The notes below the pieces were generated by a model. It saw only the letters and a list, made by a program, of their open reading frames with translations. It had not been told where the DNA came from and ran no database searches. From a virus (taxonomy: Duplodnaviria > Caudoviricetes), in the IMG/VR virus record IMGVR_UViG_3300048851_000204, positions 1 through 34,372 of that record: 34,372 nt of DNA. One strand, written 5' to 3'. This document shows positions 162 through 25,208 of the stretch, one piece after another. The position numbers were made by a program, and so were the translations under genes. Position 1 is the first letter of the stretch. Each line of letters begins with the position of its first letter.

Positions 162-450
162 AGGTCCTCACAGTGTCCGTGGATCGAAGGATGATCGGCT
201 CGCGCGCCGCGAGGCGGTCGGCGTAGGTGGTCAGCGCGACCGCCTGTTGGGTGGCGAAGCGCCTCTCGGCGTCAGCACGCAGATGCTCAGCCTTGACGAT
301 TTCCGCAGTCCACGCGGCGCGCTCGGCCTTCAAGGTCGCCGTCCGGTCGTCGAGTTTTCCACGTGTTATCCACAGGGCTATGCACAGGCCTACAATGGGC
401 ACCGCCCACCAGAACCGGCGCAGCAGCGCCCAAATAACGGGCCAGGTCAT
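1..450 (-). CDS. Inner-membrane spanin (Rz-like)
   Basis: Starts MTWPVIWALLRRFWWAVPIVGLCIALW (N-terminal TM helix) followed by an Ala-rich coiled coil. ATG at 450 overlaps the endolysin stop (ATGA). A nested lipoprotein gene lies in its 3' part. Confidence 0.8.
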   Translation of the reverse strand: MTWPVIWALLRRFWWAVPIVGLCIALWITRGKLDDRTATLKAERAAWTAEIVKAEHLRADAERRFATQQAVALTTYADRLAAREPIILRSTDTVRTYAQTDAGRAACLPANRVLGIDALDAELFTRNPTSAGGGDKALPSNADAAPARR

Positions 451-962
451 GCTTCGTTCGAAGATGAGGGGACACCCGCGATCGAGGTCATCAGCCGGGG
501 CTTCCCGATAACCGCACGTCCGATCGGCCAGCGCCGCGCGATACACCGCGACTTCTCCAGACGCATGATGCTGACACGATCGCCTTGGTTGCCGCCGAGG
601 ACGTGATAGCTGGTGAGATCCTCGCCGACGTAGAAGCCGACATGGCCGCCACCGGCGCGGTCGAACACAAGGACGGTACCGGGTGCGAGCTTTGCCGCGG
701 CAAGGTTCGCGCCCCAGGTCGCCCACGCTTTCGCACGCACCGCGATCGGCGCGGCCGGGACGCCGTCTTCGGCGAGGCAAGTGGCGACGAACAGACCGCA
801 CCACGGCACGCTGTCGGCATTGTAGACCATGCCGAGAACCTTGGTGCCGAGCTTCTTCGCCCAGCCCATGATGGTCGCGCTGTTGGCAGCGCCGGCCGCT
901 TCGCGCGTGCCGATAAGGGACCGGGCATGGCGAAGCCACGCCGGCTCAAGTGCCGTCGTCAT
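447..962 (-). CDS. TIGR02594-like NlpC/P60-CHAP peptidoglycan hydrolase, probable endolysin
   Basis: Motifs PAWL..ARS.IGTRE, D.VPWCGLFV (catalytic Cys), GGGHVGF (His) and LGGNQ. GAAGGA RBS. Lies between holin and spanins. Confidence 0.85.
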   Translation of the reverse strand: MTTALEPAWLRHARSLIGTREAAGAANSATIMGWAKKLGTKVLGMVYNADSVPWCGLFVATCLAEDGVPAAPIAVRAKAWATWGANLAAAKLAPGTVLVFDRAGGGHVGFYVGEDLTSYHVLGGNQGDRVSIMRLEKSRCIARRWPIGRAVIGKPRLMTSIAGVPSSSNEA

Positions 963-1673
963 GTAAATTTCCTTCAGTGGTGAAGCTATCGGACCCTTGG
1001 GCCGTTCAGGCCGGTGCCGGGGTGTTCCTACCGTGCCCTTCGGCCGGCCCGCCCTTTCCTGATCTGTTGGGGCGGGCCGTTATAAAAAGTCACGCCGTGC
1101 ATCCGAATACGGCGGGTCTACGTACCTGCGCGTCCGCAGTGCGGTTCGCTCCCTTGCTGATCCACTGCGAGGCTCGTCACACGGGCTTGAGGCGGTCAGC
1201 CTACCCGTTTTTATCAGCATTTTTTTCGGGTAGGCTGACCGTTGCCGTACCGTGATACGGAATCATGATAATTCCTTCCGAAGTGAAGCCTTTTGCCTTT
1301 TGGGCCGTTCTCGACCCGCCGATCTCCGGATCGCACCCGGACCGGCCGGTCCGCCCTTTCCCTCATCTGTTAGGGCGGGCCGTCACCGATCAGCTTTGCG
1401 CGCTGTCTCTCATCGGGCACACCTGTTCGTTCGAAATGCCTTGTCAGCATGTTTTCGCTGTTTAACTTCGAAGGCGCGATACCGGGGCAGATTGCCTCGT
1501 ATCGCCTACTGCCGGACGGGTGACCGGTCGGCCCGCCTTTTTTATTCCAATTTTTAAGGCGGGCCGTTATGTCTTGCGAAGAGCGCGACAACCGGTCACT
1601 TTGAATGCGCTGGGTCTCCCTGAAAGTTTCCCGCCGGCCCGTCTCTCCCTGAACAAGAAGGGCGGGCCGTTAC
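963..1673. repeat. Non-coding array of five related GC-rich hairpins with variable structured spacers
   Basis: Inverted repeats at 1045-1079, 1193-1241, 1347-1382, 1529-1566 and 1635-1669. Four share the right arm GGCGGGCCG followed by TTA or TCA. Confidence 0.85.
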
Positions 1674-1976
1674 TCAGTCGACCTTGGTTGCCGTCAGCTG
1701 CCCAGCGATGTTGCGGGCGAGGACGAGGACGAAGCGCATCGTGCCAAACCCGATCCAGCCAGCGCTGGTGCCAGCGACGAGCGTCGACCATGCCGGCCAG
1801 CCGAAGTGGACAGTGGCAGCGCCGGCCATCGAGCCGAACGCGGGGAGCAGCGAGCACATCACGAAGATGTCCCGCCAGGTGACCGGCTTCCCGGCCTCGA
1901 TCTTCTGACCGACGCGCAGGATCTGTCCGGCGAAAACCGCAAACGCGGATAGGGCATATGCCTGCCAGTCTTTCAC
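1674..1976 (-). CDS. Probable holin
   Basis: 100 aa with 2-3 hydrophobic segments and a basic C-terminal region. GTG start overlaps the upstream stop. Upstream of the endolysin. Confidence 0.65.
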   Translation of the reverse strand: MKDWQAYALSAFAVFAGQILRVGQKIEAGKPVTWRDIFVMCSLLPAFGSMAGAATVHFGWPAWSTLVAGTSAGWIGFGTMRFVLVLARNIAGQLTATKVD

Positions 1977-3128: not shown

Positions 3129-5507
3129 TTATCCGATCACCTCACCGCCCCAGACGCCCGCTGCAGGTGCGTAGATGTTCACGCCGTCGACGCTGACCGC
3201 AGACACCGGATAGTGCGTCGTAGTCAGGCTGATCTGGGTGCCGGTAACGACGCCATAGGCCAGCGGGATGTAGCCAACGCCGCGAAGGCTCGCGACCTGG
3301 CCCGGCGCGACGCCGTTGATCACCGCCGCGTTACTCTCGCGCACCGTGAAAATGGGTATGCCTACGTCCGCGCCCCCGTTGAGGCGGAAGCCCATCCCGA
3401 GCCCGGCGCCGAAGGTCGTGTCGGCAAAGTCGATCTGCTTCTCGCCGTCGACACGAACGACGTGTCGTTGGCCTTGGATCTCGATCGTGACCCGGTGGTA
3501 CAGGCCAGCCACCGAACGCACCGCAGCGTTCGCGCCCGAGACGTTTAGCTGCGTGGTGACGCCGTTGACGATCTTGGATAGCGAGGCCGTAAAGGCGAGG
3601 TCCGACACGCGCCCAACGTCGAACGTGAGCATGTAGCAATTCAGAATGTCACCAGGGGCCTGCATGCGGTAGAAGAAATTGATCGTGCCCGTGAGGGTAT
3701 TAGGCCGCACCACGAAGTCTGCCACGAACGACGAATGTGCCAGCGGATGAAGGATCGTGCCGTTCCCGCTGGTGGTCTTGCCCGCGAGTTCCTTGGTGGT
3801 GGGTTCCAGGATTGCGTACTTCAGGCGGCGCCCGACGTGATTGGAGCCAGACGGGCGCGGATCGGTATCGAACACGATTGGCACGTTGCCAAGGCCGTCC
3901 ATATCGACGACGCTGCCAAGCACCTTGGTCTTAGGGCTGGCCATGCCGATCGCGGTTGTGCCGTCCATCGGGCTGATGCGCTGCGTGACGACTGACGTGG
4001 CAGCAGACCAGTCCGTGAGGCTGTTGCTGAAGTAGGCCGCGTTGCTGTCCGTTGTTCCGATCGCCGGGTTGATGACGTTGGTCATCATCACCCACTTGTT
4101 CAGCACGGTGTGGAAGAAGACCTTGGGGTTCTCGTCCTGCCGGCGCACACCATCAGGCAACACAGGCGAGCCGGTGCGCGTCCATGGCCCGGTCGGGCTG
4201 GGGCCGGTAGCGCGGCCGATGTACCAGTTCGTCGCCGCCTTATCCGTCGCCGAATAGAACAGATGCCACAGACCGTTCGCATCCTTGATGGGCGGTCCAC
4301 CGATATAGGCGTCCAGCGCATCGAAGCTGCCAGCCGGCCCTGAGACAAGCTGCGACGCGACGAAGGTATAGGGGCCTTCGAACGTGTCAGCCGACCACAC
4401 GTCGCTGGTATAGGGTTGGCCCGCCACCTGGTTGTTCGAGATGGTCAGAGCCGTCAGCGTGTAGCAGTAGTATTTGCCATTGGTGTGCTTGAGGACGCCG
4501 AGGTTGCCGCGCGATGCCCAGTTGCCGCTGTCATAGCCGTGCTTCAGGCCAATGCCGCCGAACGCGCCCATCTTGGTCCACGTAAGACCGCGATCAGTGC
4601 TCTTCTCGTACTGGATGATCCACGGCCCGCCGGGATCGGTTGTAGAGCCGTTGCCGGAGTCCGACAGCATGTAATAGGTGCCGTCCGTGTCCTCGTACCA
4701 GTTGCCCTCGCGCACACCGCCGTAATCGGAGGCGCCGGGTGCGCCCGGTGCCCAGGGAATGACAGAGGACGGATTGAAGCTGACGAGCGCAGGCTTGGTG
4801 ACCGACGTCCATGCCGCAGTGTCGCCAGTCCAGCCGGTGAGCGTGCCGTCAGACTTGTAAAGCAGGCCTTTGCCAGTTCCACCGAGTGCGATGGCGGAAA
4901 GGCTGTCGCGAGCTGCCTGGGCTTGGGCGGCGGCGGTCTGAGCGGTCGCGGCCGATGCCGCTGCCGATTGAGCAAACGGTATGAGGATGTCGGCATCATC
5001 CAGCGTGACGTTGATGATCTGATCGCCGAAGGTCAGCGATCCCGTATCGTCCACGCTGGCTTGCTGCGACCCACCATAGCCGACGGGCCTATTCGCTGGA
5101 GCGCTGTCCGACCCGAACGCCGACGCCACCGCGATAAAGTCGCCGTAGAGGCGGGTCTGAGCGTCGCCGTTCAACGTCCACTGCATCGCATAGGCAAAGT
5201 TTGAGTTGTCACCCGCTTCGCCCGCGTACGGAACCTTGGTGGCATCGCTCATGGTCGAGGCGTTGATCCGCCCCTTGATGATGCTGGTCGGCACGCCGTT
5301 GGTCATGGTGACGCTGTCGAGTTTCAGCCCTTCGGCCGATACAGTTGCGACAGTGGCGAGCGCGAACAAGAGCATCGGATTATCCTTCGATAGGCGCACC
5401 TGCATCGCCATGTTCACGCCGGTCAGGTCAATGCCCTTCACCACGATCGTAAAGCGCGCGACTTCGTTGCGCCGGGCCGCAAGGTCCAAGCGTGCTGCAT
5501 TTGCCAT
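3129..5507 (-). CDS. Tail fibre / receptor-binding protein with glycoside-hydrolase-like beta-propeller and ConA-like C-terminal domain
   Basis: N-terminal adaptor and an SAAASAATAQ linker. Propeller-type motifs (KSTDRGLTW, WHLFYSA, IGRATGPSPTGPWTR, DENPKVF) resemble the GH32/43/117 clan. Last tail gene. Confidence 0.7.
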   Translation of the reverse strand: MANAARLDLAARRNEVARFTIVVKGIDLTGVNMAMQVRLSKDNPMLLFALATVATVSAEGLKLDSVTMTNGVPTSIIKGRINASTMSDATKVPYAGEAGDNSNFAYAMQWTLNGDAQTRLYGDFIAVASAFGSDSAPANRPVGYGGSQQASVDDTGSLTFGDQIINVTLDDADILIPFAQSAAASAATAQTAAAQAQAARDSLSAIALGGTGKGLLYKSDGTLTGWTGDTAAWTSVTKPALVSFNPSSVIPWAPGAPGASDYGGVREGNWYEDTDGTYYMLSDSGNGSTTDPGGPWIIQYEKSTDRGLTWTKMGAFGGIGLKHGYDSGNWASRGNLGVLKHTNGKYYCYTLTALTISNNQVAGQPYTSDVWSADTFEGPYTFVASQLVSGPAGSFDALDAYIGGPPIKDANGLWHLFYSATDKAATNWYIGRATGPSPTGPWTRTGSPVLPDGVRRQDENPKVFFHTVLNKWVMMTNVINPAIGTTDSNAAYFSNSLTDWSAATSVVTQRISPMDGTTAIGMASPKTKVLGSVVDMDGLGNVPIVFDTDPRPSGSNHVGRRLKYAILEPTTKELAGKTTSGNGTILHPLAHSSFVADFVVRPNTLTGTINFFYRMQAPGDILNCYMLTFDVGRVSDLAFTASLSKIVNGVTTQLNVSGANAAVRSVAGLYHRVTIEIQGQRHVVRVDGEKQIDFADTTFGAGLGMGFRLNGGADVGIPIFTVRESNAAVINGVAPGQVASLRGVGYIPLAYGVVTGTQISLTTTHYPVSAVSVDGVNIYAPAAGVWGGEVIG

Positions 5508-23716: not shown

Positions 23717-23807
23717 GCGGCGGGCCGTACCTAATCACCGGCGTTGGGGCTACAATCAAGACGATGGAATAGAGTGCAATCGCAGTAACATAGAGCAAGA
23801 TGCAAGT

Positions 23808-24638: not shown

Positions 24639-25208
24639 TCAAGCAGCGGATGCTAAATCAGATACGAGGTGCGAGCGCAGATGTAAAGTCTCGACCTTGA
24701 TCTCCTGCGCTCGGCCGAACAGCGAGACTGACAGCGTGGTCGTCAGCCCATCGCTCAGCTCGACGTACGCCTCGAACCCGGTGAAAGCGCCACTGGTGAT
24801 CTTCACCGTATCCCCGTGCTCGAACGCCTGCCCTCGCGGTTTGCCCGGTGCCCGTCCGCTCGCCGGCAGCGCGCTGCGGTAGCTGTCTTGCTGACGCTCG
24901 CGGAGCGCGGCCAGCTCGCCGTGCCGCACGAACACCGTCTCACCGTAATACCGGAAGATCGAGAACCGCGGGTGAGGCGAAACGTCGAGACGCTCGATCT
25001 GCTTGAGGTCGTCCAGATGGACGGCCCGCACGAAGGCGTAGGTCGGCGCGAGTGGCACAATCCGGTGCTCGGTCGACTTGCAGCGCGGGACGCGTCGGCG
25101 AACGTGCTCGGTCGGTGTCCAGACGGCGAAGCCCGCGTCCTGCAGCGACGCCACGAGGCGCAACGTCCCAGGACCCGACGTGCGCAGGATGCACCAGCCA
25201 CCCGCCAT
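24639..25208 (-). CDS. NusG/RfaH-family transcription antiterminator (Q position)
   Basis: N-terminal W.ILRT...PL.P.Y.FV NGN domain. C-terminal KOW motif GDTVKITSGAFTGF and V.LFGR. Confidence 0.88.
   Translation of the reverse strand: MAGGWCILRTSGPGTLRLVASLQDAGFAVWTPTEHVRRRVPRCKSTEHRIVPLAPTYAFVRAVHLDDLKQIERLDVSPHPRFSIFRYYGETVFVRHGELAALRERQQDSYRSALPASGRAPGKPRGQAFEHGDTVKITSGAFTGFEAYVELSDGLTTTLSVSLFGRAQEIKVETLHLRSHLVSDLASAA

Follow-up and report, generated by a model that had tools for sequence, protein, structure and literature searches.

C-rich recognition loops characterize the SuhB/GsrN/MmgR family (RF00519) and the 6C RNA, which are sRNAs of Alphaproteobacteria linked to stress, or RNAs of two hairpins. 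The sRNA genes of prophages are known to occur singly or in pairs. The cuckoo RNAs (CcsR1-4, alpha-r14; RF02344) of Alphaproteobacteria are, in the available portions of the two sources, built of adjacent hairpins with C/U-rich anti-Shine-Dalgarno loops, occur in two-hairpin forms and in clusters of up to 9, and are under stress-sigma control (PMC4615179, PMC8034643). Their loop, CCUCCUCCC, is fixed while their stems vary, and the genes, located on the chromosome, share a single RpoH promoter and transcript with a DUF1127 gene, the RNAs being cut by RNase E (PMC4615179, PMC8034643). AsxR and AgvB, from prophages of pathogenic E. coli, occupy a conserved late-region cargo site antisense to the late transcript and join a conserved scaffold to a variable part (PMC4104026). 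As far as the accessible text of the sources goes, these RNAs and Pas are 51-60 nt long with one variable 14-18-nt 5′ tail, lie as convergent pairs after PR′ and are kept in chromosomes after phage decay (PMC4104026, 10.64898/2026.05.13.724894).

The array considered here lies between the lysis genes in a 34,372-nt stretch of viral DNA (Duplodnaviria; Caudoviricetes; IMG/VR record IMGVR_UViG_3300048851_000204), hereafter the window. The array is real and conserved, and no description of it was found in the open-access literature, subscription papers and supplements aside. The main reading, to which we assign a probability of about 0.6, is that the gap is a recombination-shuffled bay of independently promoted, trans-acting anti-Shine-Dalgarno sRNA genes placed antisense to the lysis genes; it starts from the directly observed unit anatomy, strand, covariation, copy-number variation, mix-and-match of hairpins and persistence of arrays without an intact endolysin.

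The lysis-cassette gap and its predicted elements

By gene annotation the window is a partial temperate siphophage genome with terminase, portal, capsid, tail, replication and repressor genes, and its host genus is probably Sphingomonas, to which the named genomes with such arrays belong. An earlier note made from this DNA had placed the gap between a holin and an endolysin gene, and the flanks agree, with a TIGR02594 endolysin-type gene at 447-962 and a superfamily III holin look-alike at 1674-1976. The closest Atlas clusters of the latter protein are superfamily III holins (score 0.92); it has no PHROG or NCBIfam match, and Pfam returned one spurious sub-threshold match. The N-terminus of the endolysin, MTTA, is common to unrelated endolysins positioned after such arrays, and the GH19-like endolysin of locus L353 (weak match, E=0.001) has the identical start. 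After the endolysin, a membrane protein (154-450) overlaps a lipoprotein-like ORF (3-161), an arrangement on the minus strand (3-450) that fits a spanin pair; these ORFs have no family match. Farther along the minus strand are a 792-aa tail-region protein (3129-5507) with a weak glycoside hydrolase 43 match, possibly a receptor-binding protein or depolymerase, and a NusG/RfaH/UpxY-like antiterminator (24639-25208), which sits where lambdoid phages have Q and is common to 6 of the 12 array-bearing phages. A lone ACGGCCCGCC is found at 23719-23728 (minus strand), just ahead of the first late gene; taken as a second such motif near the late promoter, it was considered as a loading site for the NusG-like protein and rejected as inconsistent across 5 relatives, and it is probably a chance occurrence.

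The 721-nt gap folds far better than its dinucleotide shuffles (z of -8.2 and -8.5 on the two strands; 0/20 shuffles each), and all five stem-loops listed in the earlier note are found where it had placed them. Four have their arms at 1045-1054/1070-1079, 1193-1207/1227-1241 (perfect 15 bp), 1347-1357/1372-1382 and 1529-1539/1556-1566, and the fifth, 1635-1669, is a member of repeat family D1. The repeat unit is larger than proposed there, as a second hairpin and promoter-like boxes, counted there as spacer, belong to it. The units are ~105 bp long and, in an alignment made on the strand opposite to that of the lysis genes, start with a -35-like box; a GTT/GTA box comes after 16-18 nt and hairpin A after a further 8-9 nt, followed by hairpin B and UUA. 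The two hairpins abut directly, have variable C/U-rich loops and as a pair measure 58-69 nt (191 units). The flanking features and the elements of the gap, the latter all predicted, are the following, with bit scores from the covariance model R1.

447..962, minus strand: endolysin (TIGR02594 / NlpC-P60-like), from the TIGR02594 match
969..975, minus strand: endolysin ribosome-binding site, from sequence; on the opposite strand, the first sRNA unit has its -35-like box directly beside it
981..1006, plus strand: promoter-like boxes TGAAGC-N16-CGTT of the terminal-unit type, predicted to drive the 1013-1083 RNA
1013..1083, plus strand: predicted sRNA unit a, from fold and R1 match (55.3 bits, training set member)
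1016-1044, plus strand: hairpin A of unit a, loop with UUCCUACC
1045-1079, plus strand: hairpin B of unit a, loop with UUUCCUGAUCUGU
1098..1124, plus strand: promoter-like boxes TGCATC-N17-CGTA ahead of the type-2 RNA, equally spaced in homologs
1133..1245, plus strand: predicted type-2 RNA of ~115 nt with three hairpins, a separate conserved family
1214..1278, minus strand: putative vestigial copy of the endolysin start region, with ribosome-binding site, start codon and a remnant frame of 17 codons
1284..1309, plus strand: promoter-like boxes TGAAGC-N16-CGTT for unit c
1315..1386, plus strand: predicted sRNA unit c, R1 match (48.7 bits, training set member)
1318-1346 and 1347-1382, plus strand: hairpins A and B of unit c, the loop of B with UUCCCUCAUCUGU
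1430..1570, plus strand: predicted longer unit d, with family core 1508-1570 (R1 42.7 bits, outside the training set)
1574..1602, plus strand: candidate housekeeping-type promoter TTGCGA-N17-CACTTT for unit e, proposed from position only
1606..1673, plus strand: predicted sRNA unit e, R1 match (45.4 bits, outside the training set)
1674..1976, minus strand: holin-like membrane protein, from Atlas look-alike, hydropathy and cassette position

R1 finds four full-length plus-strand units in the window (1013-1083, 1315-1386, 1508-1570 and 1606-1673), the last two of which were not part of its training set. Upstream of its family core, unit d has two extra hairpins (about 1444-1459 and 1475-1507); its 5′ end and promoter, with a candidate TTGCGC box at 1396, are conjectural, and no ECF-type boxes occur within 1380-1640 of the window. 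Leaders resembling 1574-1602 are found in units of L237 and L256, and a UCUCCCUGAA seed is present in each of the two loops of unit e.

The stem-loop at 1193-1241, previously regarded as a divergent copy of the repeat, is not matched by R1 and is instead the 3′ hairpin of a different conserved RNA, the type-2 RNA, with a U-rich UCAGCA loop. Seven homologous loci could be aligned, with boxes arranged upstream as in the sRNA units; 7 of 40 pairs show two-sided change, in 5 sequences, and Rfam gave no match for this RNA. The 1093-1114 segment, read before as a folded spacer, overlaps the promoter-like element and its fold is absent from homologs. A stand-alone hairpin at L369:1626-1836 (plus strand) has a U-rich UCAGCA loop like that of 1193-1241 on other stems. 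A third conserved structured RNA family, for which Rfam gave no gathering match, is located inside related arrays (L373:1352-1546, minus strand; L381:1518-1712, plus strand; L220:3234-3428, minus strand), and one of its forms has a terminal hairpin with an A-rich run after it. Because second and third conserved RNA families occur, the gap appears to serve as a bay for several RNA families. The minus-strand remnant at 1214-1278 is, on the evidence of repeat family D4 (969-1007 versus 1272-1310), apparently the trace of a terminal-unit duplication, and similar endolysin-start stubs are found in L034 and L160.

Strand, pairing and promoter-like boxes

Pattern scans of viral, genome and metagenome contigs, together with R1, yielded 191 distinct units of Sphingomonas prophages and chromosomes, which are related by descent, so that the counts overstate independence. 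Covariation, which the earlier note had set as a check, is seen in both stems: of the stem cells in 57 units, 95.6% are paired, compared with 32-51% in slid-partner controls, and two-sided changes occur in 11 of 18 stem pairs. This test is biased toward structure, since the same stems served to set the ends of the alignment. In stem B, G·U pairs outnumber A·C by 44:2 in the first 76 units (5 of 81 having been dropped as false), by 36:3 in 44 held-out units and by 37:1 in 91 further ones, or by 52:3 when distinct position, type and loop-family variants are counted in all 191. The corresponding ratios for stem A are 63:3 and, in the 91 further units, 77:15. The G·U excess is seen on one strand only, which sets the predicted RNA strand as the one antisense to the lysis genes; of 216 loci, 0 have a unit oriented like the endolysin or units on each of the two strands. 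Readings on the lysis strand (stop-codon read-through hairpins, purine-loop decoys and ribozyme-like folds) are ruled out by the G·U bias, and resemblances to ribozymes and attC were not borne out by the alignment. Conservation at the base of hairpin B, invariant in 57 of 57 units, goes further than pairing would demand. GUU is present upstream of stem A and downstream of stem B; most units end in UUA with no U-tract, and some have a true U-tail on the predicted strand.

The promoter boxes were counted after 18 of the 76 units, with a weak or mis-called stem A, had been dropped. Of 37 non-redundant units, 31 have a -10-like box at a constant distance and 25 have both boxes so placed (shuffle means 4.2 and 0.4); the held-out sets gave 29/43 and 17/43, and 83/91 and 63/91, respectively. 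Among internal units, AAC-N16-18-GT(T/A) occurs in 20 of 30 non-redundant ones, against 1.7 expected with the -10 box fixed. These internal-unit boxes resemble the published EcfG general-stress motif, given in the consulted parts of the sources as GGAAC-N17-20-GTT for Sphingomonas melonis (PMC6599016) and as GGAAC-N16-CGTT, with the variants TGTT, CATT and GGTT, for Sphingopyxis granuli (PMC7083833). TGARNC-type -35 boxes are found in 34 of 100 units, 29 of the 34 being terminal, endolysin-proximal units. Units a and c of the window have boxes of the TGAAGC type (981-1006 and 1284-1309), a type not identified among the Sinorhizobium ECF motifs in the available part of PMC6180224. The terminal-unit TGAAGC box overlaps the endolysin leader, which may constrain it independently, and TTG-type boxes occur in a few units, units d and e probably among them. 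No canonical EcfG -35 box is present ahead of the window's own five elements, and a standard scan for sigma-70 promoters and terminators returned 0 and 0. Since five near-complete relatives encode no phage sigma factor (PF08281), a host sigma factor would presumably read these boxes.

Distribution, loop exchange and candidate targets

Among 80 loci that have a related endolysin, the hairpin stands upstream in 5, and an array is present in 2 of 6 holin relatives; three holin relatives have merely a short plain spacer between the lysis genes. Relatives, to which the earlier note had looked for variation, do differ in unit number (1-5) and loop content: the 106 distinct arrays comprise 46, 37, 17, 5 and 1 with one to five units, sizes that are undercounts as units outside the 191-unit list are missed. 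R1 matches occur in 11 of 151 Sphingomonas genomes, with up to 17-18 units in one genome, and beyond the seed genome weak matches were seen in 2 of 151 genomes of the family and 1 of 151 of the class; the best 33-150 candidates per genome were scored, and absence means not found among those. In the 11 Sphingomonas genomes the copies (1-18) cluster at prophage lysis regions or remnants thereof. GenBank phages and PLSDB plasmids gave no match to the window gap or the L261 array, and Rfam no gathering match in the window or 8 loci, with sub-threshold chance matches at E<=10. The array is therefore neither the known Rfam motif nor the host-wide REP family that the earlier note had allowed for, as no Rfam family matches and the 1-18 copies are clustered in a single orientation, not dispersed in large numbers and in both orientations like a host REP/MITE. 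A host-wide palindromic REP-like repeat does exist, at 7-8 copies per genome by one motif (L704, L705, L706, L712, L713, L717 and others, around position 1500 in those loci), and is unrelated to the array.

An intact endolysin with the shared start follows 61 of the 106 arrays, a stub follows 16, and 5 were left unjudged; in the other 24 there is no shared-start endolysin within 420 nt, other starts being possible in some. Stand-alone copies beside SRAP-peptidase and unrelated chromosomal genes keep their boxes and stems largely intact. In L365, L368 and L382, arrays without lysis genes adjoin an SRAP (SOS-response peptidase) gene and a short-protein cluster, which suggests decayed prophage ends with a retained sRNA bay. 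The 12 array-bearing phages have no non-structural protein cluster in common, only near-universal structural genes. No common candidate for a CRISPR/TIGR-like effector was found among them; the window is incomplete, a host-encoded partner is possible, and stand-alone chromosomal arrays occur.

Loop motifs of the anti-Shine-Dalgarno type are present in 173 of 191 units and of the Shine-Dalgarno type in 32, and some common loops, for example the CCGGAAAGUG and CUUGGCAGUGG types, are not anti-Shine-Dalgarno. In 100 units, 43 A types and 34 B types form 72 pairings; at least two partners were found for 12 A and 15 B types, and the commonest B type has 13 A partners. The examined loci hold 85 seed families, and loop types recur across different phages. 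Unrelated endolysins after arrays share identical first codons, and stubs of that start are stranded within arrays; the crossover points between co-resident prophages would be the conserved stem bases and the endolysin start.

Three complementarities were picked post hoc. Loop B of unit a, one of these picks, is complementary over 12-14 nt to a conserved leader in related prophages, one that covers the Shine-Dalgarno site and is found at 8 high-GC viral loci, usually before an excisionase-like gene adjoining the integrase; in a second such pick, both loops of unit e are complementary to one leader, CAGGGAGAG, in G161 and G009a; and in the third, likewise chosen afterwards, the commonest A loop, CCGGAAAGUGA, shows 12-nt complementarity to the opening codons of a host carbonic anhydrase gene, in 7 of the 30 loci read. 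A conserved leader of ~30 nt stands before different small early genes, often excisionase-like (L458, L466, L475, L477; further L492, L512, L535 and L547, around 1500 or the listed match), and in Sphingomonas-type prophages it looks like a modular exchange point. Seed pairing of at least 11 bp gave 52 matches over 934 phage windows, as against 14 over 386 host windows, the latter from 400 kb of one genome, a modest excess with no enrichment beyond controls. Family-window pairs per 100 amount to 8.7 for early, 6.1 for late and 6.5 for host windows; the respective pairs number 42, 28 and 25 versus 24, 21 and 15 for reversed seeds, and lie below those for flank-shuffled seeds. For four further seeds, 3 host genomes yielded no more matches than did the reversed controls, or matches in the unrelated REP-like repeat, and a CCAAC-type seed has no conserved start-proximal host site in 12 genomes. 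An energy-based target ranking was discarded as confounded by array-derived windows.

RNA-labelled data comprise two runs at a share of 0.06, as contigs and so without strand or ends. Among the listed matches of a soil metatranscriptome, two full-length contigs of 149 and 140 nt, each with 2 differences and at depth 2, fall on the array of L238 within a 20-kb stretch, and in the second run one contig lies on a flanking gene. These contigs are not counted as evidence, because the run was selected with this stretch and the contigs are strandless.

Weighing the readings and relation to described RNAs

In the main reading, each cassette would likely give an RNA of ~65-70 nt in the lysogen, whose C/U-rich loops would pair with ribosome-binding regions and so repress other mRNAs in trans. 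Host RNA polymerase with EcfG, or a related ECF sigma factor, would read the AAC-N16-18-GTT boxes of the internal units, and the TGAAGC-type, endolysin-proximal boxes and the few TTG-type boxes possibly depend on other sigma factors. Hairpin B would end or protect the RNA, with read-through and trimming where a U-tail is missing, and the loops would be seeds that pair with Shine-Dalgarno sites or the first part of the coding sequence, in genes of the host or of co-resident prophages. Exchange of whole units and half-units between co-resident prophages may use two short homology anchors, the almost constant base of hairpin B and the common endolysin start. The earlier suggestion of an sRNA array processed at its repeats accordingly survives in its first half; the idea of repeats as processing sites around informative spacers mostly falls away, as it is the hairpin loops that carry the information, and what was called spacer consists largely of promoter-like boxes and a first hairpin. 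A single large structured RNA, also proposed there, does not accord with units and half-units that assort independently.

It is unlikely that the RNAs of the same strand are instead protein-binding or decoy molecules, such as chaperone or repressor sponges or defence-nuclease decoys, cut from a precursor at GUU. The base of hairpin B, constant beyond pairing needs, would suit a protein ligand, and the GUU flanking the units recalls the CcsR RNAs, which in the accessible text are cut by RNase E at GUUUCC (PMC8034643); most units have no U-tail, several recurrent loops have neither anti-Shine-Dalgarno motifs nor host matches, and the two RNA-library contigs cross unit borders. However, cleavage does not account for an AAC that resembles a -35 box and lies at sigma spacing in 20 of 30 internal units, the 85 seed families exceed the diversity needed for one protein ligand, and nothing but near-universal structural proteins is shared by the array-bearing phages. 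Because most units are without a U-tail, GUU-trimmed read-through precursors still have a place within the main reading. Very unlikely, in our view, is the action of the loops as anti-sRNA sponges that pair with host regulatory sRNAs, like AsxR and AgvB of E. coli prophages: the logic of a conserved 3′ part, a variable part and a position antisense to the late transcript is the same in the part of PMC4104026 consulted, and purine-rich Shine-Dalgarno-like motifs do occur in 32 of 191 units, but the loops are mostly pyrimidine-rich and hence resemble sRNA seeds, not mRNA mimics.

The constant orientation, together with the terminal promoter that overlaps the endolysin leader, the hairpin B that abuts or overlaps the holin stop codon and the intact endolysin after 61 of 106 arrays, would also suit cis-antisense control of lysis, in which convergent transcription or pairing with the late mRNA curbs leaky lysis or delays the endolysin. 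Such an RNA would be complementary whatever its loops, though, which does not account for conserved loop types that are used repeatedly or for arrays of several units. No intact endolysin start lies near 40 of the 106 arrays and close holin and endolysin relatives have a short plain spacer, and we regard this reading as quite unlikely. Stacked cis-elements that delay endolysin expression, an option of the earlier note, are likewise disfavoured, as the RNA is antisense to the lysis genes and the arrays outlast the intact endolysin. It is highly improbable that the repeats are DNA-only elements, REP/MITE-like or recombination sites, with no RNA function: their strong primary-sequence conservation, shuffling at unit junctions and as many as 17-18 copies per genome would fit, whereas the one-stranded G·U bias, the promoter boxes, the single orientation, the clustering of copies at lysis regions of prophages or at what is left of them (11 of 151 Sphingomonas genomes) and the different sequence of the dispersed REP-like repeat of the host would not. 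Trans action of the sRNAs is favoured because arrays persist without an intact endolysin and stand-alone copies retain boxes and stems.

A further step, which we consider rather doubtful, is that Sphingomonas prophages build stress-induced dual-seed sRNAs from a common stock of interchangeable hairpins and with them silence the excision and early genes of competing prophages as well as chosen host genes; if true, new specificities in such an arsenal would come from recombination at conserved stems, not from spacer acquisition. The array of the main reading would be a large natural sRNA library (191 units, 85 seed families) on one scaffold with per-unit promoters and half-unit shuffling, and would show how new sRNA specificities arise and spread. 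It would also connect what prophages carry with the general stress response of their plant-surface Sphingomonas hosts, and control of one prophage by the RNA of another would become directly testable in cultured strains; the scaffold, if it works as predicted, would be a ready two-seed knock-down tool.

Among the described RNAs, the SuhB/GsrN/MmgR family and 6C are chromosomal with fixed seeds, unlike the array; SuhB is treated in a preprint (10.64898/2025.12.09.693200). The array has no Rfam match to these families at E<=10, and six-C runs, as in the 6C RNA, are found in 6 of 191 units and in both loops of 0 of 191. With AsxR and AgvB the array shares the late-region cargo site, the conserved position antisense to the late transcript, the conserved 3′ part or scaffold with variable parts and, as also in Pas, the retention in chromosomes after phage decay; it differs from all three in having two variable loops, 1-5 head-to-tail units between holin and endolysin and half-unit swapping. 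The fixed cuckoo loop CCUCCUCCC occurs in 0 of 191 units, and Rfam gave no match of the array to RF02344. Conserved stems with hypervariable loops here replace the reverse arrangement in cuckoo RNAs, and the neighbours are the holin-like and endolysin genes of a prophage lysis cassette, with no DUF1127 gene and no single RpoH promoter, most units having promoter-like boxes of their own. Still, the array likewise consists of two abutting, covarying hairpins, where 2-4 adjacent ones characterize cuckoo/CcsR RNAs, with mostly C/U-rich anti-Shine-Dalgarno loops, clustering and, perhaps, stress-sigma control, and by this analogy it would work most like the cuckoo/CcsR clusters.
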